In this document: positions 12,030 to 64,000 of the stretch, in pieces
Position numbering within the stretch: the stretch's first letter is position 1
Layout: the number at the start of each line of letters is the position of its first letter
Source: a virus
Lineage: Duplodnaviria; Heunggongvirae; Uroviricota; Caudoviricetes
Strand: one strand, 5' to 3'
IMG/VR virus record: IMGVR_UViG_2711768037_000005
Location: 1-64,000 of that record
Length of the DNA: 64,000 nt
Program-made: the position numbers and the translations under genes
Notes under the pieces: generated by a model
The model's database searches: none
What the model saw: only the letters and a program-made list of their open reading frames with translations
Told to the model about the DNA's origin: nothing

Positions 12030-12037
12030 CCAATTTA

Positions 12038-12121: not shown

Positions 12122-12128
12122 CCAAATT

Positions 12129-12695: not shown

Positions 12696-12779
12696 GGAGA
12701 GTAGGGAGCATGGTGCTCAAGCGGTCTTGAAAGCCGTCCCATTGCGCAAGCGATGATGGTTCGATTCCATTACTCTCCG
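12696..12779 (+). tRNA. tRNA-Ser (anticodon TGA), type II, putative
   Basis: Acceptor GGAGAGT/ACTCTCC, anticodon loop CTTGAAA, long variable arm, T-loop GGTTCGATTCC, CCA encoded; D-arm is atypical so the call is tentative. Confidence 0.55.
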
Positions 12780-13008
12780 CCAGACACAGCGTTGAGCGGT
12801 TTGGCCTTTTAATCAACCAGATTAAGACTCCGCTAACATAAACCAAACCGCTCAACGCTGTGTGTGAAATTCCACATATTTTATACATATCCATTTACGC
12901 AATTTTTTATTGTTCTTTCATACATTACTCTTATATTTTATTGTCGTTTTTTAACTGCTAAAATCGTATCGATTTTAGCTAAAGTTTATCGTTAAAGGAG
13001 TAACGATT

Positions 13009-20794: not shown

Positions 20795-23700
20795 ATGAAG
20801 GCACTGATGGTTCGAACTGACTTCTCACTTGGGGAGTCGGCTTTAAAAGCAGAAAACGCGGTGAAGATTGCCAGAGAAGCTGGCTACACCGCTGTAATTT
20901 CAGCAGATAGCATGAATATTGCGAGTGTTATTCCACTACAACGTGCCGCTGGTGACGACATGGCGGTTATTTGTGGTGTGAAACTAAACATCGTTGATGA
21001 TCCCACATACGAGCACCGAGCTAAACTTGCTAAAGAATCTAAGAGGTGTATGGAATCATTAGAGCGAGGACGCAACTACTCGTTTACCGCTCTAATTAAA
21101 AATGAGCAAGGATATCGCGACATCTGCGAACTAATGACGGTGGCCAACACACGAGAACAGTTCTACTTTGTACCGCGTCTCTCGCTCGAACAGTTGGTTT
21201 CTACATATGCCAAAGGCAACATCATCCTGCTCACTTCCGACATCGGTAGCGTGTTCCAACGCAACGATTTTGCAAAAATCATAAGCACACTGATTACAGC
21301 GGGTGGAAAAGACAACTTCTATAGTGTGGTTTATCCGCACCCTACCCCATTCTACGACCAGATTAACGTCCGGGCGATGAAAGTTGCCAGCGCACTGAAA
21401 ATAGAGCCAGTAGCGTTTTATCCCGCTTATTACGAATCGATCGACGATGCTGACATTAAAGACATTGCGCACATGGTTACGAACAACATCAAAATCGACC
21501 AGCCGCATCGTCTGCGTATCCCCCACCAGCGAGATAACGCCATCAATGGTCGCCGCCATCTCCTTGAGGCGCTTAAAACCTTCTCCGTTCGCATGGATGT
21601 GCCGGTAACAGCTGCAATGGCCTCAACAACGCAGGATACCATTATCGATGCCTGCACATGGCGCTGGCATGAATTGCCGCCAGCACTGCCAAAGATGGCA
21701 GACGACGAGCCTGCAACGCTGATGAAACTGGCTGTTGCAGGGCTGCGTAAACGTCTTACCACAAAAGAGTTTGGCTACACACCACCTGCTTCTGAGAACA
21801 GGGTTTATGTTGAGCGGCTAAAGTACGAAATGGACACGCTGACTCGCCTGGGATTCTGTGGTTACTTCCTGATGGTGCGCGATCTGATGAATCATAGTCG
21901 TGAAACTGGCATTCCCGTTGGGCCTGGTCGTGGTTCCTCTGCCGGTTCTCTGGTGGCGTGGTGCATAGGCATAACCAACGTCGACCCAATCCGTCACGGT
22001 CTTCTGTTTGAGCGTTTCATCAACCCTGAGCGTCTCGACTTGCCGGATGCGGACTTGGACTTCAGCCAGGCACGTCGCCATGAGGTGATCGAGTATCTGA
22101 ATGAACGCTACGGCGAAGATTACGTTGCAGGCATTCCGAACTTCACCTACCTGGGCGCCGCCTCTGCACTACGTGACACCGCTCGTATTTATGGTGTGGA
22201 GTCCGCAGATATGGCGGTATCAAAAGAACTGAAGAACGTCGAGGATGATAGCCTTCCATTGGAAGAACTGCGCGAACAACTGGCAAGTCTCGACAAATAC
22301 GCAACAAAATATCCTGATGCATTCAATGCAGCCTGCAAGTTACAAAGCCTTATGCGTGGCTTTGGTAGACATGCGGCAGGGATGATCGTAGCAGGTGTTC
22401 CTCTGACAGAACGTACACCGGTTGAGCGCCGTGGTGACGCGCGTTGTATCGCATTTGACAAGCGTTACTGCGAGGCTATGGGCCTAATTAAACTGGACGT
22501 GCTTGGTCTGGCAACTCTCGATTTGCTCGATAGTGCAAAACGCTACATCAAAGAGAGTACCGGGGAAGACATCAATCTTGATGCCATTTCTCTTGAAGAT
22601 CGCAAGGTGCTGGATGGTTTTGCTGCTGGGTACACTCAAGGTGTTTTCCAGCTTGAATCAGGCCCAATGCGCAAGCTGCTTAAAGATTTAGGTGGTGGAA
22701 TTGAGCCAATGAGCTTTAAAACGGTCGTCGCTACAACTGCGCTCTTCCGGCCGGGGCCAATTCAATCAGGCATGTTGGATGACTATGTTTCTGTCGCCAA
22801 AGGCTTTATGACGCCGGAATCATTACACCCCGTTCTTGATGAACTTACCGCGGAAACAAATGGCGTGATTCTCTATCAGGAACAGACGATGAACGCGACT
22901 CGATTGCTTGCCGGCTTCACAATGGCTGAAGCTGACGGTGTGCGTTCCGCAATCGGTAAGAAGAACATGGAAAAAATGAAGAGCATGGGCGAGAAGTTCA
23001 TCGTTCAGGCTCAAGCTGGCTGGATAGACGTTGAGCTGGAAGATGGCACTACACAGCGCATTCACCGTGCGGAACATTTTAAATGCGAAGACGGAACTCT
23101 GAAAACTGTCGAAGAGGCACTTGAGTACGGCGCAAAACTACCTATAAACGCAGTACGCGTTACAGCGTCACATCCAGGGCTATCAGAGATGAAAGCGAAG
23201 GAGATCTGGACCGCATTCGAAAAGAATGGTGCCTACCAGTTCAACAAATCACACTCTGTTGCTTACTCCTTAATCAGTTATCAATCTATGTGGTTGAAAA
23301 CTCATTATCCCGCAGAGTTTTTCGCTGCTGCTCTCACTATTCTTGGCGAAGATAAACACCAGGGGCTGGTTAAAGATGCGCTGACCTATGGTATTCGCGT
23401 ATTACCACCAGACGTTAACATGTCATCTAACCGAATCGAGATCCGCACGCTTGAAGATGGCAGCCAGGTGCTGTATGCGCCCTTCTCTGCTGTGAAAGGT
23501 TGTTCTGAGAATGGCTGCCAGGCCATCATGAGAGCACGAGAAAAAGTTGGCGGCAAATTCGAGTCACTGGCGCAATTCGAAGAAGCTGTCGAGAAACGTG
23601 CCTGTAATAGTCGAGTGCGCGAATCGCTGCAAAAAGTAGGGGCGTTTGCATCCATCGAGCCAGGTAGTCTGCCAGCAACTGATCCAGAGCGCCTACGCGA

Positions 23701-24313
23701 CCAGGCTGAATTGATGGGAAACCTTGTCATAGACGCAGTTAAAGCCTCACGTCCGTTTGAGATGAACCCCAAACGTTCGGCTGAAATTAACGTACTCATG
23801 ACGCGGATGGCGGCTGAAATGGGCTTAGGTGATGAACTAATCCGCCCCAGCATTGGTATTAAGCCGAAAATCATGATCATTCTGGACAATGCGAACGGCA
23901 ATGATACTCGAACCGGTTACTTCATGGAAAACGGATACGACGATTTTAAGGCCAAGCTATTGACGGCTGGAGATTTACGCATGGGCGATCTCTATGTCAC
24001 AGGAGTTTGCAAGAAGGTTAAAGACAAAGAAAAAGACTACACCAAAGACGAGATCGGCCAGTTCACCGACTTTATGCGTGAAGAGATCAATCTGGTGCGT
24101 CCGACCTATGTGCTGACGTGTGGCAGCCGGGCAACTTCATTGTTTAACAACAAAAACAAGCCATCCGATTTGGTCGGCAGGAAGGAGTATCTTCCAGACC
24201 TTGACGTTACTGTCTTTTACGGGTTTAACCCCAACATTCTTTACTTCAGACCTGAAGAGGGAGAACGACTAGAAGCTATATTAGCCGACGTAGCAGAAAC
24301 TATTAAGACGTGA
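20795..24313 (+). CDS. dnaE: DNA polymerase III alpha subunit (DnaE-type, PHP domain)
   Basis: N-terminal PHP-like MVRTDFSLGESALK; palm motif GPGRGSSAGSLVAWCIGITNVDPI; 1172 aa. Confidence 0.85.
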   Translation: MKALMVRTDFSLGESALKAENAVKIAREAGYTAVISADSMNIASVIPLQRAAGDDMAVICGVKLNIVDDPTYEHRAKLAKESKRCMESLERGRNYSFTALIKNEQGYRDICELMTVANTREQFYFVPRLSLEQLVSTYAKGNIILLTSDIGSVFQRNDFAKIISTLITAGGKDNFYSVVYPHPTPFYDQINVRAMKVASALKIEPVAFYPAYYESIDDADIKDIAHMVTNNIKIDQPHRLRIPHQRDNAINGRRHLLEALKTFSVRMDVPVTAAMASTTQDTIIDACTWRWHELPPALPKMADDEPATLMKLAVAGLRKRLTTKEFGYTPPASENRVYVERLKYEMDTLTRLGFCGYFLMVRDLMNHSRETGIPVGPGRGSSAGSLVAWCIGITNVDPIRHGLLFERFINPERLDLPDADLDFSQARRHEVIEYLNERYGEDYVAGIPNFTYLGAASALRDTARIYGVESADMAVSKELKNVEDDSLPLEELREQLASLDKYATKYPDAFNAACKLQSLMRGFGRHAAGMIVAGVPLTERTPVERRGDARCIAFDKRYCEAMGLIKLDVLGLATLDLLDSAKRYIKESTGEDINLDAISLEDRKVLDGFAAGYTQGVFQLESGPMRKLLKDLGGGIEPMSFKTVVATTALFRPGPIQSGMLDDYVSVAKGFMTPESLHPVLDELTAETNGVILYQEQTMNATRLLAGFTMAEADGVRSAIGKKNMEKMKSMGEKFIVQAQAGWIDVELEDGTTQRIHRAEHFKCEDGTLKTVEEALEYGAKLPINAVRVTASHPGLSEMKAKEIWTAFEKNGAYQFNKSHSVAYSLISYQSMWLKTHYPAEFFAAALTILGEDKHQGLVKDALTYGIRVLPPDVNMSSNRIEIRTLEDGSQVLYAPFSAVKGCSENGCQAIMRAREKVGGKFESLAQFEEAVEKRACNSRVRESLQKVGAFASIEPGSLPATDPERLRDQAELMGNLVIDAVKASRPFEMNPKRSAEINVLMTRMAAEMGLGDELIRPSIGIKPKIMIILDNANGNDTRTGYFMENGYDDFKAKLLTAGDLRMGDLYVTGVCKKVKDKEKDYTKDEIGQFTDFMREEINLVRPTYVLTCGSRATSLFNNKNKPSDLVGRKEYLPDLDVTVFYGFNPNILYFRPEEGERLEAILADVAETIKT

Positions 24314-33237: not shown

Positions 33238-33770
33238 ACCGCTGACAGCATACACAATCAACTGCCGCTGATAGCATATCGAGAGTCTATCTCACCGCTC
33301 ACAGCATACTTTACTCGATTTTTTACCGCTGACAGCATACTTAAGACATTGCATGAATAATGTGTACCGGTATGGGTATAACCAGAACAAAATTACCGCT
33401 GGCAGCATACGAAGGTCTGACATATGCCATTAATTACCGCTGATAGCATATCCAAACAAAAATTCCTCAATAAAACACCGCTGACAGCATACGTTCTATC
33501 AGGGAGCAGCAGGCAATAAATGCCTTTCACTACAAGCAATCAGCGCAATAGCAATAGAATGTTAGTGAGCGCAAACCTATATGGAATGCACTCTTCGAGG
33601 TTAGTAACCACTGGGGAGGTATGACAGAGCATTGAGTGGTGATAGATGATTTACCGCTCACAGCATACGTTCATCTCACTATACCGCTGGTAGCATATCT
33701 TTAACCGTTCACAGCATACATTTCAGAAAAATAGCCGCTGATAGCATACATTTCACCGCTGACAGCATAT
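33238..33770. repeat. iteron array downstream of rep: 12 copies of a 16-bp repeat ACCGCTGACAGCATAC (variants) in two clusters
   Basis: Copies start at 33238, 33264, 33294, 33325, 33395, 33436, 33477, 33653, 33683, 33704, 33734, 33755; irregular spacing; last copy overlaps the rep stop codon. Confidence 0.7.
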
Positions 33771-34864
33771 CAAAGCAGTTTGAGACTATTGGAAAGGATC
33801 TCAATCATCTTGATATTTTCAGGCGTCAAATTCTGCGAAAGTTCAGTTATCTTGTTGATAATGTTCTGTTTAGCATCAATTTCCCCGGCTTTCTCATCTG
33901 GTTTTTTGGGTTCGATGTCTTCAGGTTTTGGCGGTGCGACTTTAAGTTTTGGATTACGGCTGTGAATCTGGATATAGATCGACCGCCCTCGCTTAATCTC
34001 GCTGTATTCGAGATAGCCCAAATCTTGGAGAGCTTTTAAGCCGTTACGTATAGTCTGATTCTGCGAGCTTACATTCCTGCTACTCAAATTGAGTCGCGCA
34101 CGCAATCGAGCAAGCGATACCGGCGCAGGCTTGGTTGGAAGACTTTCGATGAAGGTGTACAGAGCCTGTGCTGTTTCTTTGCGTGGTAGCTTATTGATAA
34201 CCTTTAACTGCAAAAGAACCTTATGGTCAAAGCGATATAGTTCGGCCAGCTTCGGTTCTGCATAGAACACCACCGTATCTTTCTGCTCGTTGTAGTCCAC
34301 GCTATTGATGAGGTGCACCATCAGAAGCGAGATCTTGTTAGAGCCGTCGACGTTCTTTTCTTCATACGTTCTCTGGAAAGACAGAGTTGTACGCATGATC
34401 TTCAAAAGACTGTTTGTAAGCCGGTCGCGGAGTGTTTTGCGGATCTGTGACGATGGATAGCCACAAAACTTCGCAAATTTCGTGATGCTTAACTCGACAC
34501 GACCATTAGGTTCGCCGTATTCTGCCAGCGAACGCACAACGCCCACCCACGTTTTGAAATCATGATCCATGTCCAGGCGAGGACCGGTTATCTTGATATC
34601 GGAATAGCCTTCAGAACGGGCTACTTCGAGCTGGACAAGCTCCTTTGAAGCATCGATCTCATTTGGCTTGTTACGTTTACTGTATTTTGTTCCCTTAAGC
34701 GTGGGGACGAACAACCCCAGTCGCATCAACGCAATTGGTTGGACTGTATTGTTGCTATTAGGGACAAGTTCCCCTGTGTACAATTCAAGGGAACCTTCTT
34801 CAAAGTTGTCGATGTTATCTTCTACTTCTTTGTTATTTTTACCTTTTTTATTTTTTGTGGACAT
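33770..34864 (-). CDS. iteron-binding replication initiator (Rep), putative
   Basis: Only large minus-strand gene; flanked on both sides by iteron arrays; start taken at Met of MSTKNKKGK because the longer ORF-track N-terminus runs into the upstream iterons. Confidence 0.65.
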   Translation of the reverse strand: MSTKNKKGKNNKEVEDNIDNFEEGSLELYTGELVPNSNNTVQPIALMRLGLFVPTLKGTKYSKRNKPNEIDASKELVQLEVARSEGYSDIKITGPRLDMDHDFKTWVGVVRSLAEYGEPNGRVELSITKFAKFCGYPSSQIRKTLRDRLTNSLLKIMRTTLSFQRTYEEKNVDGSNKISLLMVHLINSVDYNEQKDTVVFYAEPKLAELYRFDHKVLLQLKVINKLPRKETAQALYTFIESLPTKPAPVSLARLRARLNLSSRNVSSQNQTIRNGLKALQDLGYLEYSEIKRGRSIYIQIHSRNPKLKVAPPKPEDIEPKKPDEKAGEIDAKQNIINKITELSQNLTPENIKMIEILSNSLKLL

Positions 34865-34884
34865 GTGGACACCTTTGTCATTCA

Positions 34885-34986
34885 ACCGCTGACAGCATAC
34901 TTGATTTGCCGCTGACAGAATACCAAAAACAGTTGGCAGCATACGGTGAACCGCTGACAGACTATCAATTACCGCTGACAGCATAC
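34885..34986. repeat. iteron array upstream of rep (about 5 copies, one degenerate)
   Basis: ACCGCTGACAGCATAC at 34885 and 34971; variants at 34908, 34931 and 34950. Confidence 0.65.
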
Positions 34987-35017
34987 ATGAACATGGCTTC
35001 AGACCAGTCGTGGCGCG

Positions 35018-44342: not shown

Positions 44343-45221
44343 ATGAACTTTACCAAACTGACTGACCACCTGAAACTTGCCACCGATCGACTCATTGGAT
44401 TTAAGCCAGAACCATATGAGTTGCATGAAGGTCATGGTGTAGCTACTGAAAGTATTTACAAGATGGTCGATCAGTTTCATGAACTCTTCCAGCATCCGAG
44501 ACGCGTTATGCCGACACCAGAGCTGCTTCGTCTCCGTGCAAGCCTGATTCATGAAGAAGCTGTAGTGGAAGGTATTCCAGCCGCAATGAATGGGGATATT
44601 GAGCAACTGCTGGATGCAATGGCCGACTTTTTATACGTTGGTATTGGTACGATGGTCGCCATCAAAGGTGGTATTTCTACCGGCATGACCTATTACACGC
44701 AGGAACAGAGCATTGATCGCTTTATGCAGACAATTTTTGTGCCTGGTAACACTGTTTTCGATGATATGGCAATGCCATTTCAGGAAGCTCGTGAGGCGTC
44801 ATGTATGCTCGAAGAGCTGGCAGATAAACTTGAGAACAAGACTGTTAAGGATTCTGAGCTGATTCAGGAACTGCGCCGTGTCATGAACAAAATCTATGTG
44901 GCGTGCATGATGACCTATCGACTGGCTGATTTCCTCGGTATCAATGTAGTTGAGCTGGTTGGCGAAATTCATCGGTCTAACATGACAAAATTATGGCCTG
45001 CTGATGTCGAGGAACGTCGCCAGGCTGTGGCCAACTGCAAATACGACTCTTCAGATCTGGGATTCCGCCATGCTGATGGCACCGATAAGATGATCGGTTT
45101 TCGAATTTCCGATGGAAAGATTCTGAAGTCTCCAACCTATAGTGATGTAGATTTATCCTCCTTTGTTGAGCAAGCTAAAGCCTCTGCAATGTATGAAATG
45201 ATAAAAAATAATTGTAGGTGA
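44343..45221 (+). CDS. hypothetical protein; possible MazG-like all-alpha NTP pyrophosphohydrolase
   Basis: Weak resemblance of IHEEAVVEGIPAAMNGDIEQLLDAMADFLYVG to MazG EExxE...D metal-binding helix pair; sits in the nucleotide-metabolism block. Confidence 0.3.
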   Translation: MNFTKLTDHLKLATDRLIGFKPEPYELHEGHGVATESIYKMVDQFHELFQHPRRVMPTPELLRLRASLIHEEAVVEGIPAAMNGDIEQLLDAMADFLYVGIGTMVAIKGGISTGMTYYTQEQSIDRFMQTIFVPGNTVFDDMAMPFQEAREASCMLEELADKLENKTVKDSELIQELRRVMNKIYVACMMTYRLADFLGINVVELVGEIHRSNMTKLWPADVEERRQAVANCKYDSSDLGFRHADGTDKMIGFRISDGKILKSPTYSDVDLSSFVEQAKASAMYEMIKNNCR

Positions 45222-45354
45222 TTATCTATTAGTGTATATTTGATTTGCGTATAAAACTCTGGAACGACTATTCTTTTTGGTGGCCTATGGCCACCATTTT
45301 TTTTATCTATCTGGCCTTGTTCCCTCAATAAATGTAAACTCACGCAATGAATAA

Positions 45355-46485
45355 GTGGTTACTTATCTTTGTGAGGTTTTTGTGTCACTCCTTTTGAATC
45401 GTGAGCATACGAACGGTCAGGTAACAAACGCATCGTATGCAAAAGTTATTGAGACGGTGCTTAAAAGCGGCGTGCAGGCTGATGATCGCACAGGCACTGG
45501 TACTTTAAGCACCTGCTACGTTCCCTCTTACTACATGCTTACTGGTGGGACTGTGCCGCTTATTTCTGGAAAGGCGGTAAATCTTAAGCCACTGCTTGTC
45601 GAACTTGAGTGGTATCTGAAAGGCACGGGCAACATCCAATTTCTCAAGGATAACGGCGTTAAGATTTGGGATGCATGGGCCGATGAGAATGGCGATTTGG
45701 GGCCGGTTTACGGTAAGCAGTGGCGTCGATGGGAAGATACCCGCATCGTGAGCCATAGTGAATATCTGAGCAAGATCGCTACTTTCCGTGAACGCGGGTA
45801 CAAAGTCGAGGGATACCTGGGTATCAGTGAAGATCGCGTAGTGCTGTCCCGTGAAATCGATCAGCTACAGCGTATTGTCGATACACTGCGCACGAACCCT
45901 ACCGATCGTCGCATCATGCTTAACGCATGGAACGTAGGCGAGCTTGAGGATATGAAACTGCCACCTTGCCACTTTGTCTTCTCTTTGTGGAGTCGTGAGC
46001 TGGATTTTGAAACCCGTTTAACGATGGCAACTGACATTGGTCTTCAACACAGTCGCCTCGGTTACGAGTCTATCTACACCAAGATGCTATACGATCTGGA
46101 GATGGACGGCAGTGTTACTGAAGCTGAACTGGATGAACTTGGAATCCCCAAACGCATCCTCAACTCCTGCCTCGTACAGCGTAGCGTAGACACTTTTGTT
46201 GGTATGCCATTCAATATTGCTGGCTATGGCATTCTCACTCATTTTCTCGCGAAGATTACGGGTCACATGGCCGGTGCATTTGTGCATTTTGGCTTTGACG
46301 TGCATTTGTACAACAACCACATGGAAGGTGTGTGTGAGCTAATGAAACGACAGGCTCCAGAGCATTCAGATCCGGTCGTTATTTTCCCTCATGAATGGTC
46401 AGAGTTGGATGATTTCAAATGGGACGAGGTTTTAATTCTTGGCTATGACCCTCTACCGTGGATCAAGGTTCCAGTGGCGGTGTGA
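45355..46485 (+). CDS. thyA: thymidylate synthase (ThyA family) carrying two internal insertions
   Basis: DRTGTGT, WDAWADENGDLGPVYGKQWRRW, RRIMLNAWNVGEL, catalytic LPPCH, C-terminal GYDPLPWIKVPVAV all align with E. coli ThyA; about 30 and 50 extra residues at two sites; start codon ambiguous (GTG 45355 or 45382). Confidence 0.85.
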   Translation: MVTYLCEVFVSLLLNREHTNGQVTNASYAKVIETVLKSGVQADDRTGTGTLSTCYVPSYYMLTGGTVPLISGKAVNLKPLLVELEWYLKGTGNIQFLKDNGVKIWDAWADENGDLGPVYGKQWRRWEDTRIVSHSEYLSKIATFRERGYKVEGYLGISEDRVVLSREIDQLQRIVDTLRTNPTDRRIMLNAWNVGELEDMKLPPCHFVFSLWSRELDFETRLTMATDIGLQHSRLGYESIYTKMLYDLEMDGSVTEAELDELGIPKRILNSCLVQRSVDTFVGMPFNIAGYGILTHFLAKITGHMAGAFVHFGFDVHLYNNHMEGVCELMKRQAPEHSDPVVIFPHEWSELDDFKWDEVLILGYDPLPWIKVPVAV

Positions 46486-46486
46486 T

Positions 46487-46900
46487 ATGGCAAGAGGTAT
46501 GTATGTCTTATGCGAAATTGAAGGTGTGCTGGCAAATGCCAGCCATCGTAAATCAGTATCTGACGCGGATGCAGGCCAGCTCATTGCCGGTGATGAACTC
46601 ATTTTCCCCACCAGCCGTATGTTGCGTGGTTTTGCTCGCTCAGGGGCTGAAGTGGTGCTTATCAGTAGCCGCTCTGAAACTCTTGAAGCGCCAACTAAAC
46701 GATGGCTGAAAGATTTTGGCGTTGATTATGACTGGCTTCATCTCGTACCGAATGGCACCAGTTATGAGAAGCATATTAAGCGCACATTAGCGGAGCATAA
46801 AGGCGATCTGCTTATCGCTGCGCTGGTGCACGATCCTCGACTCCGTGCCGCTTTAGCCGACTCTCACCATCGACCGGTCATCTATGAGGTGAGCAAATGA
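46487..46900 (+). CDS. hypothetical protein
   Basis: In-frame ATG at 46487 just after thyA stop (ORF track 46439); translationally coupled to DHFR gene. Confidence 0.3.
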   Translation: MARGMYVLCEIEGVLANASHRKSVSDADAGQLIAGDELIFPTSRMLRGFARSGAEVVLISSRSETLEAPTKRWLKDFGVDYDWLHLVPNGTSYEKHIKRTLAEHKGDLLIAALVHDPRLRAALADSHHRPVIYEVSK

Positions 46901-47373
46901 AGATGATCGCTGCTGTTGGCCGTAACTATGAGATCGGCATAGCGAATGAACTCCCCTGGCGTTGTTCTACCGATCTGAAGCTATTTAAGAGACTCACCAA
47001 AAACGCCACTGTCGTTATGGGGCGTAAAACGATGGAAAGTCTCAAACGCCCTCTTCCAGAGCGTCATAACCTCGTTTTGACGCGCTCTCATGGCTTTGTA
47101 CCAAATGGATTCTACCCTGCTGGTGTGGATGATGTGTTGCGATTACCAGAGCCTGTGTGGGTGATTGGCGGGGAACAAATTTACTCGCTATTCATGCCGC
47201 ATGTTGAAGAGATTTGGCTCTCCCACATCGGCGTTGATGTACCAAACGCCGATGCATTCTTCCCGGCAAGCATGATGCGTAACTTAGGCTTTGTGCCTGT
47301 TGAAACAGCTTATACCCAACGAGCCAGCGAGGAAGAGCCTGGCTTTTCGCAGATCGTATACAGAAGGTCGTAA
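46897..47373 (+). CDS. dihydrofolate reductase
   Basis: MIAAVGRNYEIGIANELPW and VVMGRKTMESLKRPLPER match the DHFR N-terminal fold; 158 aa; adjacent to thyA. Confidence 0.8.
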   Translation: MKMIAAVGRNYEIGIANELPWRCSTDLKLFKRLTKNATVVMGRKTMESLKRPLPERHNLVLTRSHGFVPNGFYPAGVDDVLRLPEPVWVIGGEQIYSLFMPHVEEIWLSHIGVDVPNADAFFPASMMRNLGFVPVETAYTQRASEEEPGFSQIVYRRS

Positions 47374-48017
47374 TGGATTACCGGATTGGGATCACTGGTG
47401 CTCAGGGCAGTGGGAAAACAACCCTGGCTAAATATATCGACAAACATTACGGAATCCCTTACGTGGATGCTGGTGTCGGAAGTTTGATGAGCCGCCTCGG
47501 TGTTCGAGTAGGTGATTCTATGCCTCTATATGAGCGGCTTCAGATTCAAATGGAAATAGCAAAGCATATAGAGCTACTTACGCGTGGTGTTGAAGGCTTT
47601 GTTATCGATCGCACACCTGCTGATGTTATGGCCTACACGTTGGATTTGGTCGGCCATACAAATGAAGATCGGTGTATTGAGTTAGCCCTCGATATCGAAA
47701 AGTTTTGCCACAAAACTGCTATTTCAAACTTTAACGCCATTGCTGGCCTACGTCCGGGGGTCGCTCTCTCAGAGCGAGATTACTTGCGGTCACAACGAGC
47801 ATCATTAGACCGTCTGTATGTCGCTCGTATTGATGCGTTGATGTGCGGGGAACTGACAAAAATTCACCTGCATCCGCAAAGGGGAGATCTGCAAACCTTC
47901 GTCGTTTCCAACCGGTATCGCACAGTTGAAGCAAGAGCCAGATCAGTGATGAGAATGCTAGATAACGCTGTAGAAAAGATAGAAAACCGGTTCTGTGGCC
48001 GAGTGACCGTTCATTAG
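47373..48017 (+). CDS. P-loop NTPase, probable (deoxy)nucleotide kinase
   Basis: N-terminal Walker A IGITGAQGSGKTTLAK; size and context within nucleotide-metabolism genes. Confidence 0.4.
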   Translation: MDYRIGITGAQGSGKTTLAKYIDKHYGIPYVDAGVGSLMSRLGVRVGDSMPLYERLQIQMEIAKHIELLTRGVEGFVIDRTPADVMAYTLDLVGHTNEDRCIELALDIEKFCHKTAISNFNAIAGLRPGVALSERDYLRSQRASLDRLYVARIDALMCGELTKIHLHPQRGDLQTFVVSNRYRTVEARARSVMRMLDNAVEKIENRFCGRVTVH

Positions 48018-48078
48018 AAATTGTTCGCCTCTTCGACATTGCGACAATAAAACTCTCAAAATGGGTTAAGGATAAAAA

Positions 48079-48498
48079 ATGTTTAGTGAAATGTTGCTTG
48101 AAGATGAACTGGATCGGAAAACAACAGAGGCTTTGATTCGTGTAGCGGACGAACATTCCCGGTCGCTTATGAGCGATCGAGAGGCTCGTCTGGCTATTCG
48201 TGCCATATTCGAAACTGCGCAGGGGCTTGTTGGTACACAAGTGGGTGAAGCCATTAACATCGCCATGTCTCAGTTCAGTGAAGGCAGTAAAAAGCCTCTG
48301 TTTCCTATGCATTTGATGCTGGCTGGTGGCACGGTGCTTTATATCTCTGTTTGTCTGGATAGCAACCAAATCAATATTCTCAACACTGTGTCAGGTAAGT
48401 GGAAAGATCCGATTGTCTGTGAAACCAGTGAAGAAACTTTGAAAAAAGCGGCTCAATTTGTACGTAGCGCACTACTTAAGGGCGCTAAGAAGTTGTAA
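48079..48498 (+). CDS. hypothetical protein
   Basis: ORF track. Confidence 0.4.
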   Translation: MFSEMLLEDELDRKTTEALIRVADEHSRSLMSDREARLAIRAIFETAQGLVGTQVGEAINIAMSQFSEGSKKPLFPMHLMLAGGTVLYISVCLDSNQINILNTVSGKWKDPIVCETSEETLKKAAQFVRSALLKGAKKL

Positions 48499-48507
48499 GG
48501 AGTTCTG

Positions 48508-49062
48508 ATGACAACGATTGTTGCAGGCATCGATATCGAGTCTACGGGACTGGATTTCCTTGCTGGTCATAAAATTATTGAAATCGCAATTACCCGCTAT
48601 GAACTGGAGACACAGAGACATATTGATAGTTTTGTAATGCGGTTCAACCCGCGTCGCAGTATCGATCCGAAAGCGCAAGCGGTACACGGCATCAGTCTTG
48701 AAGATTTAGCCGCCGAGCCGTTACTAGCCGATCACGCTTCATCTGTCGCTTCGTACCTCTCTTCTTCCGATATTTGGATAGCCCACAACGGCGAAGCGTT
48801 CGATATTCCGTTTATTAGGCATGAGCTGAAAAGTTACGGTTTTTCGCTTCCAGACATCCCATTGATTGACACTCTATTTTCCCTGTGGGCCACAGAAGAC
48901 GGTAAACGTCCCCGCCTTGAAGAGTTGGCCTTCTCTCTTGGCTTTATATACGATCATGCCAAAGCACATAGTGCCTTATATGACACAAACTTAATGATGC
49001 AATGCTTCTTTAAGGCACGTAATAAGTACGGATTTTTTAAATTACCCTCTGAAATTGTGTAA
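48508..49062 (+). CDS. DnaQ-like DEDDh 3'-5' exonuclease (proofreading epsilon-like)
   Basis: Exo I GIDIESTGLD, Exo II AHNGEAFDIPF, Exo III HSALYDT. Confidence 0.7.
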   Translation: MTTIVAGIDIESTGLDFLAGHKIIEIAITRYELETQRHIDSFVMRFNPRRSIDPKAQAVHGISLEDLAAEPLLADHASSVASYLSSSDIWIAHNGEAFDIPFIRHELKSYGFSLPDIPLIDTLFSLWATEDGKRPRLEELAFSLGFIYDHAKAHSALYDTNLMMQCFFKARNKYGFFKLPSEIV

Positions 49063-49067
49063 AGCAA

Positions 49068-49106
49068 AAGCCTACTTTAAAGAGAGTTTAAAGTAGGCTT
49101 TCTTTT
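49068..49106 (+). terminator. rho-independent terminator
   Basis: AAAGCCTACTTTAAA...TTTAAAGTAGGCTTT followed by CTTTT. Confidence 0.5.
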
Positions 49107-49222
49107 AAAGAACAGTCGCCTTTCAATCATTTCCTGCCTGTATTTAATACTTTTCCGCCTGACAGGTTTAGTCAAAATGTAGCCATCGAAACGCAAATGT
49201 AACCAAACAGAAGGAGACTTAC

Positions 49223-50032
49223 ATGAGTTCGGTTGAAAATGTAATGACAAATGATGATCTGGACGAGCTGACAGCCATGTTGCAATCACTTGATGAACCA
49301 GTAAAAAAAGCTGCACAGGTTGAAAATACTGATGATATTGACGATCTGCTGCTCGGCCTCGATGCTGGCGTAGCCATGAGTTCTGATGATGTTGCCGAAG
49401 AACTGTTCAATGAAGAAAAAGCAGGTGATTTCAGCTCTGCTTTAAATGAGTTGGAGTTAGCGCATGAGCCTATAAACGTAATTAACGCTGAAAGTGTTGA
49501 ATCTGCCGAAAACGAGCCAGAACAATTGGGATTGATTGAGGTTGAAGACTGTGTTGAGGTTAATGATGAATTAAAAGTTCAACAGTCAAATGATAGCAAT
49601 ACAAATAAAAAAGCTCGTACTGCAAGAGGTCCTCGTTTTACTTTAAGTGATAAAGATGATTCGTTTTTCAATAAAGCAGGCTTAGAAAAAGATATTTTCT
49701 TAGACGCTTACGATAACGCGCCTGTCAAAGCAAAGGATAAGATATTAAACCTTCTTAATTGGTTTAGCGGAGGTCCAGATATTAGTGTTTACACGGTAAT
49801 TTCCATGAGACACCTTCTCACAGAAAAGAAGGCTACAAGTAATAGTATTAAGATTGCTTTAATGAGCAATCCAGAAAAACCGTATCCGCTTAACACTGCG
49901 TCAACTCAGGCTGGGCAAATGATGGCTGTATTTCCAGCGACAGGAATTGCTGTTAGAGACGGTGGAAATCTAACATTGAACGAAGAATCACCGATCGTTA
50001 AGAAGTTTGTCGCGGAGTACACTATTGGATGA
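49223..50032 (+). CDS. hypothetical acidic protein
   Basis: ORF track; Asp/Glu-rich N-terminal half. Confidence 0.45.
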   Translation: MSSVENVMTNDDLDELTAMLQSLDEPVKKAAQVENTDDIDDLLLGLDAGVAMSSDDVAEELFNEEKAGDFSSALNELELAHEPINVINAESVESAENEPEQLGLIEVEDCVEVNDELKVQQSNDSNTNKKARTARGPRFTLSDKDDSFFNKAGLEKDIFLDAYDNAPVKAKDKILNLLNWFSGGPDISVYTVISMRHLLTEKKATSNSIKIALMSNPEKPYPLNTASTQAGQMMAVFPATGIAVRDGGNLTLNEESPIVKKFVAEYTIG

Positions 50033-50110
50033 TGTTCCCCTACTGAAAATAAAGCCCATAGAGAGCTTTATAGTGCTGGGTACGCTAACCCATACCCAGC
50101 ACCACAAAAA

Positions 50111-50154
50111 CGCGCCAGAGAGCTTCTTGTTCGCATTTCTGGCGCGTTTTATTT
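50111..50154 (+). terminator. rho-independent terminator
   Basis: CGCGCCAGA...TCTGGCGCG hairpin followed by TTTTATTT. Confidence 0.45.
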
Positions 50155-50214
50155 GATTGCCATACATAAAATCAAATGCAAAAATAGGTAATCACTTACC
50201 TATTGATAAAGAAG

Positions 50215-58635: not shown

Positions 58636-59277
58636 ATGTCTAGTATTTCCGAAGCACATATGTTCGCCGCTGGCGCTCATGGTGGCGTTGGTCAGAAAAG
58701 AAAATATACCGGCGAAGACTACATCAACCACCCGGTTGCTGTCCGAGATATTGTTGCATTGCATGACGGAACCGTGGAGATGCAGATCGCGGCGCTTCTG
58801 CATGATGTGGTCGAAGACACCAATGTAACCATAGAGATGGTTCGTGATCACTTCGGTGAGCGCGTAGCTGAAATGGTTCAGGCTCTGACCAACATTGCAA
58901 GGTCAGAAGACGGCAATCGAATACAGCGTTTCATCATCAATGTCCGGGAGCTGGAGCAAAATCTCGACATGCAGACGCGCATGATCAAGCTGGCTGACCT
59001 GCTCGACAATACCTCTTCTATTGTGAGTCGCGATCCTGAGTTTTCAGCTATCTACCTTGCAGAGAAAGAGCTGATGCTGGACGTACTTTTTAACGGGAAG
59101 GAGATTGGTGCCAACGCTGATGTTGTCGAGTACATGGAGAGGATAGGTATAGAACACCCGTTGTTATTAAGCGCAAAGGCGAAAGTCACTGAAGGTATTG
59201 CGCTTCTGAAACCGGTACACATCAAACGTTATGAAAAACACAAATCGCTGATCTGGAGCGCGTGGGAGGCTGCATGA
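58636..59277 (+). CDS. HD-domain phosphohydrolase of SpoT/Rel hydrolase type (small alarmone hydrolase), putative
   Basis: GQKRKYTGEDYINHPVAV ... AALLHDVVEDT ... IKLADLLDN aligns with the (p)ppGpp hydrolase HD domain of SpoT. Confidence 0.7.
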   Translation: MSSISEAHMFAAGAHGGVGQKRKYTGEDYINHPVAVRDIVALHDGTVEMQIAALLHDVVEDTNVTIEMVRDHFGERVAEMVQALTNIARSEDGNRIQRFIINVRELEQNLDMQTRMIKLADLLDNTSSIVSRDPEFSAIYLAEKELMLDVLFNGKEIGANADVVEYMERIGIEHPLLLSAKAKVTEGIALLKPVHIKRYEKHKSLIWSAWEAA

Positions 59278-59816
59278 AGGTAGAAAAAATAGATGTTCTT
59301 TCCTTTGTGTTGACAGAGCTGGAGCGTCTCGATCCGGTTCGAGTGATGATTGAAAACTACGAACCTGGTAAGGGAAGAATCACCATCACCTGCTACGGAA
59401 AAGCCTGGACAGCGGCTTGGTTTGCTATGGGCGGTGATGATGTGCAGACGTTCATTAAGCGAGTTAGCAACGACTATCTAATCGACAATTTCGACCCTCA
59501 ACTGCTAAGCACGGTCGACGATGACAACGATGCAAATCTGCTTTTCGTGAAGTCAGAAATCATAAAGTTACGAAGAGAGAGAGAAATCGACGCCGTACAG
59601 GCTCGCGAAATGTGGGACGAGGCGGAAAACGCTGATGACGTAAAAGAAAGCTGCTGTTGTTTCGGCGTCGGTAACAAACTGCTGAATCTCTTTGGTGATG
59701 ATCCGTGGTATGCCGACTGGCCAACTGTACCAAACCCGAAATACCAGTATCTGGAACGCATTGTGAACGCGGTACGTGAAGGGCTGAAAGAGTTAGACAA
59801 GTTAGAGGCATCGTAA
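59262..59816 (+). CDS. hypothetical protein
   Basis: ORF track. Confidence 0.4.
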   Translation: MGGCMKVEKIDVLSFVLTELERLDPVRVMIENYEPGKGRITITCYGKAWTAAWFAMGGDDVQTFIKRVSNDYLIDNFDPQLLSTVDDDNDANLLFVKSEIIKLRREREIDAVQAREMWDEAENADDVKESCCCFGVGNKLLNLFGDDPWYADWPTVPNPKYQYLERIVNAVREGLKELDKLEAS

Positions 59817-60352
59817 TGAGAGAGAAAATCAAGAACCCGGTCGTCGTATTGTATAAACGGGAAACCAGCGATTCTTATGCGGTATCCATCACTGATGGAA
59901 GCCAGAACATGCACGATGGTCTGCTAATGGCCTCCGTATCTCCTGATGATTCGGACTACCCTTTCGCCACTTTCGCTATGGTTGGTTACTACATGGCTGC
60001 CGAAATTGAGAAGTTGCGGGCGCAGAGAGACGCATTAGCGGCGGAGAATGTGGCATTGCGATCTAAGGCTGCGGAACTGGCACATGAAGCGTCAAAAATT
60101 TACTCGGCATATAACGCCACTATCACAGAGCCTGACGGGGATTTTATGGACATGCAGACATTGCATGAAATGCAGTGCATAGAAACCCCAGCCACCGATG
60201 CTTTCCTGGCTGAAATTGAACGCAAAGCAATCCGCAAGTTCATTAACAGCATTGAACACATCCTGCGTGACAAGCTGTCACCGTATGACACCGAAGAGAT
60301 GCTTGAGGCTATGCGTATTTTTCTGGAAGAACAGGGAGGTGAGCAAAAATGA
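59816..60352 (+). CDS. hypothetical protein
   Basis: ORF track. Confidence 0.4.
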   Translation: MREKIKNPVVVLYKRETSDSYAVSITDGSQNMHDGLLMASVSPDDSDYPFATFAMVGYYMAAEIEKLRAQRDALAAENVALRSKAAELAHEASKIYSAYNATITEPDGDFMDMQTLHEMQCIETPATDAFLAEIERKAIRKFINSIEHILRDKLSPYDTEEMLEAMRIFLEEQGGEQK

Positions 60353-60663
60353 CAATCACAAAACAACGGGTAGAAAAAATCATATATCGCCATGAAATGG
60401 GACTGAACAGCGATGTCACTGCCGAAGAGGTTTATGACCTAGCTGTACTGGCGCTGAATTTATCAAATATCGCAAACCTGAAGCGATACGAGCTTGATAT
60501 GGATGGTTGCGACTCGTGCGGTCAGGATTGTGGCGCTGACATGACTGAAGATCCTGATGGTGATTATGTCCTGTTTGATGACGTGGTTAAGTTGTTTGAA
60601 TTTGATACAACCACTCAAAAGTTAGAAAGCCCAGCAAAGGAGTCATCCAGTGAGCAAGATTGA
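60349..60663 (+). CDS. hypothetical protein
   Basis: ORF track. Confidence 0.35.
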   Translation: MTITKQRVEKIIYRHEMGLNSDVTAEEVYDLAVLALNLSNIANLKRYELDMDGCDSCGQDCGADMTEDPDGDYVLFDDVVKLFEFDTTTQKLESPAKESSSEQD

Positions 60664-61165
60664 CTATCAGGCACTGCGTGAGGCGGCAGAGCGTGCAATT
60701 CCGGCAATGGAACGCCTGTTAATGTTGCCAGTTGATGATGAGCTGATAAGCGAACAGGAACTTAAAGATAGCGGTGTTGATATTGATGCGCTCAACGCCT
60801 TCAAATTTCTGGCCGGACCAGAAACCGTGCTGGCGCTACTGGATGAGAGCAACGCATTAGAGGAAACGCGTATCAACGATGTTTGTCGTATTGCAGAACT
60901 AACAAAACAACTGGAGTTGGCAAAATCAAAACTCAACGAGCAGCGTGAGTATTACGAGGGCGTTATCTCGGATGGAAGTAAGCGTATTGCTGAACTGGAA
61001 GCGCGGGAAGTTCAATTACCGACTCGCTACGACCTTCGATATGGACACCCGATAAATGCAGATGAGCGACATGTCATGATACCTAAAGAAAATGGCAGTT
61101 GGCTTTACCTGATTGACCTAGAACACGCATTACGCGTCGCTGGCATTCGCATCAAAGGAGAGTGA
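60650..61165 (+). CDS. hypothetical protein
   Basis: ORF track. Confidence 0.4.
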
Positions 61166-61166
61166 G

Positions 61167-61490
61167 ATGGCCACATCGCATTATGCAATCACCCAGGAAA
61201 AAGTATTTCGCTTGCTCGAACGTCTGGAGGCGCTCGCCACGGAGGAAGATATATCCCCGGAGATGCTGGTTGAGTGCAGCCGTGTGATATTGCGTCACAA
61301 GAACGACATCGCGCGGCTGACATCTGGCGCACCATCCGTATCAGCCAGTCCAACGCTTTATTGCAGCTTCTGCAACAAATCCCAGCACACCGTTAAAAAG
61401 TTAATTGCCGGGGACAACGTTTTCATCTGCAACGAGTGCGTGAAAGATTGCAACAACATTATCCAGGAAGATCAAAGGGAATCAGCATGA
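61167..61490 (+). CDS. small protein with C-terminal ClpX-type zinc-binding domain
   Basis: [39 protein letters not shown] is nearly colinear with the E. coli ClpX N-terminal zinc-binding domain; no AAA+ module follows. Confidence 0.6.
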
Positions 61491-62041
61491 AATTTTCCAA
61501 ATTTTCTGAGTTGGTGAATCGTATTTTGTCCAACAACCACAGCCATCGTCGCGATATGGATGTAACGATCGTTGTTCATTCGCCTGGTCGCATCGGTTCA
61601 ACACCATCAGTTGAGGTTCAGTCAATTCAGGCGGGTTTTGATTGGGATGCCGGGCAAGTGATGATTTTTCCAGCACAGCCACTGACCACGCTAACACCAG
61701 AGCAGGTTGCTGATATCACTGATAGTGTGCGCAAAGGTCAGTCTTGGCACGCGTATCAGGAATACAAGAAGCATAAAGAGCAGTTGGAAAAATTGTCGAT
61801 GGAGTTGGAAGCCGCTAAACAGCGGGAAAAAGATCTGTTTATGGAAAATGTTCGACTTAAGTCAGGTATAGCCGGTCTGATACACCTCGGTATTCGATAT
61901 GCGGATGTTGAGGTCATGAAAATTGCTGGAGATGCCCAGCTTTCTACTCCATGCACTGACAGCATCATAAACAGCATTGCAGCAGGCATTTTCACCAAAG
62001 AGGGGGGTCAGCACGATGAGAACACTAGAAGTTCGCGCTGA
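61488..62041 (+). CDS. hypothetical protein
   Basis: In-frame ATG within ORF-track 61436..62041; ATGA overlap with upstream stop. Confidence 0.35.
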
Positions 62042-62201
62042 AGACGTAATCCCTGGTGATGTGCTCATAACATCTAAAGGTCAACAATGTGCGGTTAAAT
62101 CTTTTTGGATGGAAGATGACAAAGTGACTCTGTTCGGTACGGATGGTTCCGAAACTGATTATGACTACGACGAATTGCTTGTTGTTGAGAGAGCTGCCTA
62201 A
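62016..62201 (+). CDS. hypothetical small protein
   Basis: Internal ATG of ORF-track 61977..62201. Confidence 0.3.
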   Translation: MRTLEVRAEDVIPGDVLITSKGQQCAVKSFWMEDDKVTLFGTDGSETDYDYDELLVVERAA

Positions 62202-62623
62202 TGACCACCTTAACCAAAGAACAGTTAATCTCCCATGCACGCGAAAGCGTTAGTTATCTGGAAGACTTGAAAGGACGTGTTAGTAAAGAAGGTGCGGACT
62301 GCAAAGTTGTTATTGAGATGGTTGAACGAGATCTAAAACTGGCACGAATTGCACTGGCCTCGCTGGAAGCAAAACCAATAGGTGCTTTCCACATTGCAGA
62401 ACAGCAGGTCGATGGCACAAGTGACTACATCAAGGATGGAGAATGGCCTATTGATAATGGAATTATTGAGGTCTACGCCGCTCCACCCGTTCCAGTAGTA
62501 CCGGAAGAAAAACCAATGCCTAATCCTCTTAGCATGTACGCGGTTGATGCTGTTGCCGCTATTGCAGAGGTGAGAGGCTGGAACGCCTGCCGTGCCGCTA
62601 TGCTTCAGGGAAAAGGAGAGTGA
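62201..62623 (+). CDS. hypothetical protein
   Basis: ORF track. Confidence 0.4.
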   Translation: MTTLTKEQLISHARESVSYLEDLKGRVSKEGADCKVVIEMVERDLKLARIALASLEAKPIGAFHIAEQQVDGTSDYIKDGEWPIDNGIIEVYAAPPVPVVPEEKPMPNPLSMYAVDAVAAIAEVRGWNACRAAMLQGKGE

Positions 62624-62624
62624 T

Positions 62625-63200
62625 ATGACCACTATAACCGATAAGAAACAGTATCCAGGCGAGCAATATCTTAATGAGCTGATCACCAACATAGAGTTTG
62701 CTGCAAGGGCACCAGTTGAAGTCGTGAGAGCAATGGCAGCAGAGCTACAGAAGCGGCGCGAAGCTGATAGTGCCGAACCTGCAAGTAATCATGAAGAGTT
62801 GCCGCTTGATTATCTCCAAGGTCAAAAAGATGGTCTTGAATGGGCTGCGCAGCTTGCAGAAGCAAATCACCCACAAACTGGCGACTGGCTTTACGATGAC
62901 CCGCTGGAGCTGGCTAAAGCTATCAGAAAAGGTCCTGACATGCCCGAATTCGATGGACCAACTCCGGTAACTCCGGATGGCTGGATAAGCTGTAGTGAGC
63001 GAATGCCGAAAAAGAATCAGAACGTACTTATTTCGGTGAATTTCGATAGTGATCTGGTTGAGCCGCTAATATGCTCCGCACGCTATACCGGAAGCACCTT
63101 TCGGCGAGGAGAAGCAACGATTAAGCCGGGCAATGGTGTTGAGCAGGTAACACACTGGATGCCGCTACCAGAACCGCCGCAGGAGTCGAAGAGTGAATAA
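62625..63200 (+). CDS. hypothetical protein with C-terminal W-x-P-L-P-E-P-P motif
   Basis: In-frame ATG 62625 after GGAGAG; C-terminal motif HWMPLPEPP. Confidence 0.35.
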   Translation: MTTITDKKQYPGEQYLNELITNIEFAARAPVEVVRAMAAELQKRREADSAEPASNHEELPLDYLQGQKDGLEWAAQLAEANHPQTGDWLYDDPLELAKAIRKGPDMPEFDGPTPVTPDGWISCSERMPKKNQNVLISVNFDSDLVEPLICSARYTGSTFRRGEATIKPGNGVEQVTHWMPLPEPPQESKSE

Positions 63201-63414
63201 AGCAGAGTTATTTCAGAAAATATCGGCTCTCGCGACTGAATGCCACGCTATAGCATCTGAGCTTGATGTTGGCGATGAACGAACCGAGATGTTCGAAATA
63301 TACAGTGTGCTGCGCAATCTCTGTCGGCGTGGCTACGCCACTCAGGTAGGGCGAATAACTAACCCACTGCTCACCTCCTTTGGTGATGATGACTCGAATG
63401 AGGATGAAGAATGA
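63193..63414 (+). CDS. hypothetical protein
   Basis: ORF track. Confidence 0.3.
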   Translation: MNKAELFQKISALATECHAIASELDVGDERTEMFEIYSVLRNLCRRGYATQVGRITNPLLTSFGDDDSNEDEE

Positions 63415-64000
63415 TGCATAAATCATTAGCCGGTGAGCTTCAGGAGGAAGTAGATAATACTACCGTTCTATTGGACGATATTATAAGCATTCTTGCGCTT
63501 CTTGAGGCTGGCGATTGGTCAGAACATTGCACTAAAACAGAGCTAGGCGGTCGGCTTGAAAGAGAGATTACACGACTTATTGATGATGCGCAGGAAGCTA
63601 CAGTCACTAGTTATGAGTTAATCGCTGAAGCCTGGCGTTTGATGGATGGACAAGATCCTAAAACCAGCGATTGGCATAGCAAGGCTTCGAAGTATTTAAA
63701 TTCCGATAGGGTAGAAAAAGTTGATGATGTGAAACCGAAGCCAGTAGACCACGGTTTCCGCGATAACTGCGAATGCTCTAGTTGCCAGACCACGGCCCGT
63801 ATTTGTTCCGAATTGACAGATAAGTCCAGCCTAATCTACGAAGTTAATGTAGGCGGTAATACATGGGGCGAATGCACAAGAGCTGCATACGTAAGAGCAA
63901 AAGACAAGGGTGAATTAACCAGAGTTGTTACCCATCACCCAAATAATGAGCTTAAAGATCAACAGATTAGAGAACTGGTGAACGAGTTGCGGGATATTGC
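63411..64000 (+). CDS. hypothetical protein, 3'-truncated at window edge
   Basis: ATG 63411 overlapping upstream stop; reading frame open to the end of the window by manual translation. Confidence 0.3.
   Translation, partial: MMHKSLAGELQEEVDNTTVLLDDIISILALLEAGDWSEHCTKTELGGRLEREITRLIDDAQEATVTSYELIAEAWRLMDGQDPKTSDWHSKASKYLNSDRVEKVDDVKPKPVDHGFRDNCECSSCQTTARICSELTDKSSLIYEVNVGGNTWGECTRAAYVRAKDKGELTRVVTHHPNNELKDQQIRELVNELRDI

Follow-up and report, generated by a model that had tools for sequence, protein, structure and literature searches.

A predicted stand-alone PaSpo-type small alarmone hydrolase encoded among the accessory genes of an SSU5-type phage-plasmid from Escherichia coli

Introduction

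What might an extrachromosomal element gain from a hydrolase of the SpoT type that comes without a synthetase, and on which molecules would such an enzyme act? The question is raised by a gene at positions 58636-59277 of the window, a term used here for the whole stretch of 64,000 nucleotides that was analyzed (positions 1 to 64,000 of IMG/VR record IMGVR_UViG_2711768037_000005). An initial annotation, made from the letters alone, described an element-encoded SpoT-type HD hydrolase, possibly a small alarmone hydrolase (SAH), and proposed that it could lower host (p)ppGpp in favor of replication or counteract alarmone-based defense signaling. The explanation that best accommodates the locus as a whole, and in which we place considerable confidence, is that of a stand-alone PaSpo-type hydrolase of the RelA/SpoT-homologue (RSH) superfamily, whose gene belongs to the accessory region of an E. 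coli SSU5-type phage-plasmid and whose product is very probably able to neutralize toxic small alarmone synthetases (toxSAS).

The host element

Over 300 plasmids of Escherichia, Salmonella, Enterobacter and Citrobacter, all non-mobilizable and ∼106-115 kb long, match the 3 kb around the SAH gene, as do the phages SSU5, Cyrano, CMS-2020a and PhiR41_1. Positions 44635-64000 of the window are 99.7% identical to the E. coli plasmid pOkiPb01698_2 (NZ_AP042587.1), and the gene order tracks the annotation of a sister plasmid, NZ_CP027369.1: a DNA ligase gene with four tRNA genes, an integrase gene, a CobT-like gene, dnaE, and RepB with iterons are followed by SbcCD-like genes, nrdAB, a gene for a PRA-PH/MazG-like pyrophosphohydrolase, thyA, and genes for dihydrofolate reductase (DHFR), RNase H and methyltransferases, and finally by many small Ead/Ea22/Eaa-type genes that form a long array in a single orientation. 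What the window covers is the half of an SSU5/pHCM2/pECOH89-type phage-plasmid that is given to replication, nucleotide metabolism and accessory functions.

Iteron-like repeat arrays with the core ACCGCTGACAGCATAC (33249-34989) flank and overlap both ends of the RepB gene (33770-34984, - strand), with which they make up the origin from which the phage-plasmid replicates as a plasmid; the direct repeats found in 30000-64000 are these RepB iterons and are unrelated to the SAH gene. The DHFR gene (46897-47373; Pfam DHFR_1, E = 2e-34) is annotated in pOkiPb01698_2 as 'trimethoprim-resistant dihydrofolate reductase DfrA51', a resistance label on a phage-type gene of nucleotide metabolism. The PRA-PH protein (MazG-like all-alpha NTP pyrophosphohydrolase; 292 aa, 44343-45221, E = 1e-8), whose gene adjoins nrdAB and thyA, is a candidate for a second nucleotide-pyrophosphate hydrolase on the element.

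The gene and its local signals

The features of the locus, all on the + strand, are the following.

58544..58610, + strand: conserved leader 5′ of the SAH gene, forming the left edge of the variable cassette, with a GC-rich hairpin (blastn and alignment against Cyrano and SSU5)
58611..59815, + strand: variable two-gene cassette, SAH gene plus 180-aa ORF (local blastn boundaries, alignment)
58626..58629, + strand: Shine-Dalgarno sequence GGAG, 6 nt before the SAH ATG (read off the sequence)
58636..59277, + strand: SAH gene, PaSpo-type, 213 aa (ORF, HD_4 match, SSU5_099 orthology, catalytic residues, AlphaFold/Foldseek)
59274..59816, + strand: 180-aa ORF, phrog_3451, second gene of the cassette (its ATG overlaps the SAH stop, ATGA)

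The SAH reading frame runs uninterrupted for 213 codons from an ATG to a TGA, and stops abound on the complementary strand when it is read in that register. The product is laid out as a catalytic core (residues ∼1-140) and a helical C-terminal extension (residues ∼141-213).

The leader is kept in Cyrano and SSU5 up to position 58610 and occurs a single time within the window, as judged by a repeat search. A terminator scan marked the hairpin of this leader (58547-58567, AAGGCCATAAGTTGTGGCCTT) as terminator-like on the - strand. In the sister plasmid (locus L003 of NZ_CP027369.1), ∼65 bp of the leader (58544-58608) recur at 89% identity 5′ of an S24-peptidase/HumD-like gene (18439-18503), and part of it is also found, from 22397 of that locus onwards, 5′ of the HD-less paralogue described below. 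This ∼65-bp sequence may be a module common to these sites, with a part in regulation or recombination, that marks the edges of cassettes. A sigma-70 promoter scan of 55000-62500 returned five promoter-like sites, compared with 11.7 in shuffled sequences, and none on the + strand 5′ of the SAH gene; being below its shuffled background, the scan is uninformative on SAH expression or its timing.

Domain composition, catalytic residues and fold

The Pfam profile HD_4 (PF13328) matches residues 8-135 of the SAH protein with E = 9.1e-19 and 68.1 bits, the gathering cut-off being 27.2 bits, and PHROG 990, 'metal-dependent phosphohydrolase', matches with E = 4e-54. The match to NCBIfam TIGR00691 spoT_relA (E = 4.7e-25) is limited to positions 1-123 of the 687 in the profile, which indicates that the hydrolase domain is present alone. 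HD_4 and the generic HD family are the sole Pfam matches, and profile searches of the protein for synthetase (RelA_SpoT), TGS and ACT domains found none. The HMM search suggested in the initial annotation thus agrees with its description of an HD hydrolase that has no synthetase domain.

The three motifs from which that description had been drawn lie in the 213-aa product exactly as reported: HPVAV contains H32; AALLHDVVEDT contains H56, D57, E60 and D61; and IKLADLLDN contains K118, D121 and N125. The absence of catalytic HD residues on careful alignment had been named as grounds for abandoning the assignment, and nothing of the kind was seen, all ten catalytic and substrate-binding residues (the eight above together with R22 and K23) being intact. 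HMMER alignments to Acinetobacter baumannii SpoT, Mycobacterium tuberculosis Rel, human MESH1 and Lmo0812 place H32, H56-D57, E60-D61 and D121/N125 on the matching motifs and R22-K23 on the basic pair ahead of the first His. The PaSpo enzyme of phage SSU5 has the same residue at each of the ten positions, as do 71 of 72 aligned homologues (41-98% identity).

The best PDB sequence matches are the hydrolase domains of long RSH enzymes (SpoT, Rel; E ∼1e-13). An AlphaFold model, for which an alignment of SAH homologues of 41-98% identity served as input, is all-helical (pLDDT 96.9, pTM 0.92), and among the matches listed by Foldseek against the PDB, 50 out of 50 are RSH hydrolase domains with probability 1.00, drawn from MESH1/Mesh1, Pseudomonas aeruginosa SAH, Corynebacterium glutamicum RelH, Rel and SpoT; for MESH1 3nr1 the TM-score is 0.66 (query) and 0.78 (target). 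Relative to SAHs of 175-180 aa the protein has extra C-terminal helices (∼161-212). An HD_4 score above the cut-off, the metal, catalytic and substrate residues, and the all-helical fold place the protein among RSH hydrolase domains, and a hydrolase domain as its only domain places it in the SAH class. The identification proposed in the initial annotation is therefore upheld by profiles, residue mapping, the AlphaFold model and PDB matches, which agree with one another. On these analyses, the product is most likely a Mn2+-dependent hydrolase of ribose 3′-pyrophosphates.

Comparison with characterized enzymes brings out the ways in which this SAH differs from its relatives. MESH1/Mesh1 (3nr1, 5vxa, 3nqw) provides the best structural matches, with metal and substrate residues that align with those of the window SAH, and also neutralizes toxSAS and restores pyrophosphorylated tRNA; however, it is a eukaryotic protein of ∼179 aa and ∼27% identity that lacks the C-terminal helices ∼161-212 and has an additional NADPH phosphatase activity. 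The SAHs of P. aeruginosa (6yvc, 6z3n) and L. levettii (7qoe) and C. glutamicum RelH (7qod) share the fold and the single-domain architecture at 21-26% identity, but their genes are chromosomal and not phage-plasmid-borne, and they serve in housekeeping or self-resistance. The long RSH enzymes (SpoT, Rel; 7qpr, 5xnx, 1vj7, 6s2t) have the HD1-HD6 motifs in common with the window SAH, and regulate their hydrolase via synthetase, TGS and ACT domains that the window SAH does not possess. ATfaRel, a PbcSpo-subfamily type IV antitoxin from Cellulomonas marina, and the PbcSpo enzyme of Salmonella phage PVP-SE1 are likewise single-domain RSH hydrolases, which break down the products of toxSAS and in this way neutralize every one tested. 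Both belong to a different SAH subfamily from the window gene, and ATfaRel adjoins its toxSAS in a toxin-antitoxin locus, whereas the window SAH has no such neighbor.

Orthology to the SSU5 enzyme

The SAH is 86% identical and 94% similar to SSU5_099 (YP_006906731.1) over 213 of 213 aa without gaps. The gene order DUF4942 methyltransferase, 234-aa Ead-like gene, Eaa-like gene, SAH gene and phrog_3451 ORF is common to the window and SSU5. SSU5_099, labeled 'putative guanosine polyphosphate pyrophosphohydrolase/synthetase' in GenBank and 'metal-dependent phosphohydrolase' in RefSeq, is the single SAH homologue that tblastn finds in the SSU5 genome, and must for this reason be the 'Salmonella phage SSU5 SAH (PaSpo subfamily)' of Jimmy et al. 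(2020). By orthology to that enzyme, sequence comparison assigns the window SAH to the PaSpo subfamily (Atkinson, 2011; Jimmy et al., 2020). The two proteins have the same length, catalytic residues and flanking genes, and each is encoded on an SSU5-like phage-plasmid with no adjacent toxSAS; they differ in host, E. coli for the window SAH and Salmonella for SSU5 PaSpo. That the gene is the orthologue of an enzyme already named and tested had escaped the initial annotation.

The 29 substitutions that separate the two proteins are unevenly placed, 18 of them falling within the C-terminal 73 aa, so that identity is 75% in the C-terminal extension and 92% in the core. The dN/dS ratio is 0.20 for the whole gene (dS 0.33), 0.13 for the core and 0.26 for the extension. 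Purifying selection acts on the gene as a whole, and on these sequence comparisons the extension evolves faster than the core.

SSU5 PaSpo neutralized all five validated toxSAS when tested in E. coli, namely CapRel, PhRel2, FaRel2, PhRel and FaRel (Jimmy et al., 2020; PMC7229694, Table 1). PaSpo(SSU5) has since become a routine detoxifier during expression of FaRel2, PhRel2 and CapRel-SJ46 (for CapRel-SJ46, see PMC9712102); leaky PaSpo expression suffices to detoxify FaRel2, with removal of the tRNA modification stated by the authors (bioRxiv 10.1101/2024.07.05.602228). Four of the five toxSAS neutralized by PaSpo pyrophosphorylate the tRNA 3′-CCA end and make no alarmones (Kurata et al., 2021), which suggests that the relevant substrate is probably modified tRNA as much as an alarmone. 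The proposal in the initial annotation that the enzyme counters alarmone-based defense has experimental support as to neutralization, through the activity of the 86%-identical SSU5 enzyme, and needs amending as to the signal, since such defense operates largely by pyrophosphorylation of tRNA and not by alarmones. MESH1 and ATfaRel undo tRNA 3′ pyrophosphorylation in vitro, with aminoacylation restored (Kurata et al., 2021), and neutralization is lost in the ATfaRel D54A catalytic mutant. Our literature search turned up no study in which PaSpo itself was assayed in vitro, and its substrate range is inferred from genetics, since the in vitro work on tRNA used these other two SAHs. Taken together, these analyses make the enzyme class and a capacity to neutralize toxSAS highly probable for the window SAH.

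The prominence of MESH1 among the structural matches raises a different option, namely that the SAH mainly dephosphorylates a metabolite unrelated to alarmones, as does MESH1, an NADPH phosphatase that binds PAPS. Complexes of MESH1 with NADPH and with PAPS (5vxa, 9chy) are among the best fold matches, and promiscuity of SAHs is documented (PMC9765508). Rescue from five toxSAS by the SSU5 orthologue, however, requires action on 3′-pyrophosphorylated products, and identity to MESH1 is only ∼27%; we consider this option very unlikely. Prediction from sequence of a preference among (p)ppGpp, (p)ppApp and pyrophosphorylated tRNA is, according to the literature, unreliable at low identity. We know of no validated sequence determinants of SAH substrate preference.

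A two-gene cassette without a linked toxSAS

Both the window and SSU5 carry the cassette at 58611-59815, in place of which phage Cyrano has 43 bp. The second gene of the cassette begins within the SAH stop codon (GCATGAAGG), at a start (59274) that agrees with the sister-plasmid annotation, and is probably co-translated with the SAH gene. The 180-aa product matches PHROG 3451 with E = 5e-89 and no Pfam family.

Such an arrangement could be that of a type IV antitoxin or addiction module, in which the SAH neutralizes a linked toxin encoded by the overlapping ORF or elsewhere on the element. The ATGA overlap, the joint gain or loss of both genes relative to Cyrano, and the precedent of C. marina, where FaRel has a SAH as its antitoxin, all point in this direction. 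Against it, the 180-aa ORF has neither a RelA_SpoT synthetase nor any other Pfam domain, and is found without a SAH in the lambdoid phage EC.W1-9, from which it follows that the two genes form a mosaic cassette and are not obliged to occur together. Searches of the nine flanking ORFs (55685-62041) with Pfam, PHROGs and tblastn found no RelA_SpoT synthetase, so that the adjacent toxic synthetase that characterizes a toxSAS toxin-antitoxin module is missing and the SAH is to be regarded as stand-alone and not as a toxSAS antitoxin. Jimmy et al. (2020; PMC7229694) likewise described the SSU5 SAH as stand-alone and found toxSAS generally not to be plasmid-borne. A module of this kind, for which neither a toxSAS nor another toxin partner was seen among the nine neighboring ORFs by Pfam and PHROGs, was rejected, and we rate it as most improbable.

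Three genes 5′ of the SAH gene lies that of a 561-aa DUF4942 protein (55685-57370) matching PHROG 6263, 'DNA methyltransferase', with E ∼1e-298, and an N6-adenine methyltransferase is annotated farther 5′ in sister plasmids; together they suggest that the accessory arm collects anti-restriction and anti-defense functions.

Distribution and variant forms

The SAH gene was detected in 143 PLSDB plasmids (48 from Escherichia, 41 from Enterobacter, 39 from Salmonella and 14 from Citrobacter), the Salmonella carriers including pHCM2 of S. Typhi CT18. The flanking 3 kb are matched in 330 plasmids, 172 of them from Escherichia, and the gene is present in ∼48 of these ∼172 related Escherichia plasmids. 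Among 5,426 complete E. coli genomes it occurs in 41 (∼0.8%), always on plasmids and never on chromosomes. More distant homologues are found in 330 phage genomes, strictly lytic jumbo phages included. A tblastn search for a second copy within the window found one copy only.

Related plasmids of E. coli and Enterobacter carry altered forms. In one protein (P0010, 186 aa) SAH residues ∼60-213 follow an AAA-ATPase N-terminus, and in another (P0012, 206 aa) SAH residues ∼77-213 are joined to the N-terminal part of the 234-aa Ead-like protein; both lack H32 and the HD dyad. A third (P0011, 139 aa, on 139 contigs) keeps the catalytic core and has lost the C-terminal extension. In plasmid AP026520 the neighborhood of the gene is interrupted by an IS. 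The locus is a recombination hot spot and the gene is dispensable, being missing from Cyrano and many E. coli relatives and existing in shortened and chimeric forms.

Presence/absence polymorphism, the 139-aa shortened form, the chimeric forms without the HD dyad and the IS in AP026520 might together be taken as signs of a decaying passenger gene that has no current function for the element. The window copy argues otherwise, in that its ORF is intact, its ribosome binding site is good and every catalytic residue is kept. The dN/dS of 0.20 relative to SSU5 was moreover measured over ∼0.33 synonymous substitutions per site, and the gene is conserved across plasmids of Escherichia, Salmonella (including pHCM2), Enterobacter and Citrobacter. 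Decay is, in our judgment, barely credible.

A second HD_4 gene of 230-231 aa lies outside the window, ∼9 kb 3′ of the SAH gene in NZ_CP027369.1 (L003 22469-23161), where it adjoins apbC-metG; it is missing from pOkiPb01698_2 and SSU5. Its product is 61% identical to the SAH over 210 aa without gaps, with the His-Asp dyad replaced (AALLNGVIEDT in L003, AALLHGVIEDT in cluster P0009, which has 17 members on contigs of up to 113 kb). Synonymous sites between paralogue and SAH gene are saturated and dN is 0.26, values that suggest continued constraint on the protein encoded by the HD-less paralogue, which may act as a decoy or as a binder that no longer catalyzes hydrolysis.

Proposed mechanism and role

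By analogy with RSH hydrolases, Mn2+ would be held by H32, H56, D57 and D121, a water molecule would be activated by E60/D61, and the substrate would be positioned by R22/K23, K118 and N125, the bond cut being that of a pyrophosphate esterified to a ribose 3′-OH. The expected substrates are the products of toxSAS, namely (pp)pApp, (p)ppGpp and the 3′-pyrophosphorylated CCA end of tRNA. Such an enzyme would destroy the product without binding the toxin itself and could thereby act as a universal toxSAS neutralizer, in a manner resembling type IV antitoxins. For the element, the benefit would be that translation and nucleotide pools are kept running once a CapRel-type toxSAS defense or a (p)ppApp toxin has been triggered; in addition, the enzyme may lower host (p)ppGpp.

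Synthetases of the CapRel type are toxSAS that act against phages; CapRel-SJ46 is found in prophages of Salmonella and E. coli, a host range shared with these elements, and on this account counter-defense is the most economical reading of the gene. Our analysis gives it, tentatively, somewhat under an even chance of being the main natural role. A swappable, plasmid-only cassette in ∼0.8% of complete E. coli genomes is the pattern that a conditionally useful counter-defense gene would fit.

The other role to be weighed is reprogramming of the host, with host (p)ppGpp as the main substrate, such that the stringent response is lowered and ribosome synthesis and DNA replication are kept high during lytic growth or plasmid replication. 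RSH hydrolase domains, the stand-alone Mesh1 included, hydrolyze (p)ppGpp, and ATfaRel lowers ppGpp in vivo, so that an effect of the SAH on host (p)ppGpp, as put forward in the initial annotation, is plausible by analogy. Elevated (p)ppGpp restricts phage T7, an effect that T7 counteracts with its portal protein (PMC13483052). Genes for replication and nucleotide supply (dnaE, nrdAB, thyA, DHFR, the PRA-PH/MazG-like pyrophosphohydrolase) are numerous in the window, as would suit an element with an investment in nucleotide metabolism, and the occurrence of homologues in phages that include strictly lytic jumbo phages would also accord with such a role. On the other hand, E. coli already has SpoT, and the absence of the gene from many near-identical relatives suits a conditional counter-defense gene better than a core replication aid. 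We consider reprogramming rather unlikely as the main role; it and counter-defense are not mutually exclusive.

A more specific form of counter-defense is that the SAH is deployed naturally to let SSU5-type phage-plasmids infect, or establish in, Enterobacteria with tRNA-pyrophosphorylating CapRel-type immunity, maybe as part of a 'tRNA protection kit'. This is a possibility that we advance with reserve. The kit may comprise the SAH, the element tRNA genes (11958-12782), a plasmid-borne methionyl-tRNA ligase encoded just past the window and, in some relatives, the HD-less paralogue. Our literature search found no paper in which a phage SAH had been tested in the course of infection or of plasmid establishment, and what phage SAHs do in vivo is a testable question, for which the presence or absence of the SAH gene among related plasmids provides natural plus/minus pairs.

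Little of this is new as to the enzyme, since its class, its subfamily and the orthologue in the type phage were previously described, the last having been named, genetically tested and used as a laboratory tool. Near-identical RefSeq proteins nevertheless carry the label 'HD domain-containing protein', which on more than 140 Enterobacterial phage-plasmids, S. Typhi pHCM2 among them, can now be read as PaSpo-type SAH.

Two further observations concern tRNA. The four tRNA genes of the element are Asn-GTT, Tyr-GTA, Thr-TGT and Ser-TGA; phage tRNAs bypass tRNA-targeting defenses and FaRel2 targets tRNA-Gly and tRNA-Thr, and any functional link between these genes and the SAH is speculation. Just past the 3′ end of the window, 3′ of the accessory array, related plasmids carry apbC and a full-length metG, encoding methionine--tRNA ligase (20912-24203 in locus L005, 19025-22316 in L003), and the presence of an element-borne aminoacyl-tRNA synthetase near a putatively tRNA-repairing SAH is suggestive.
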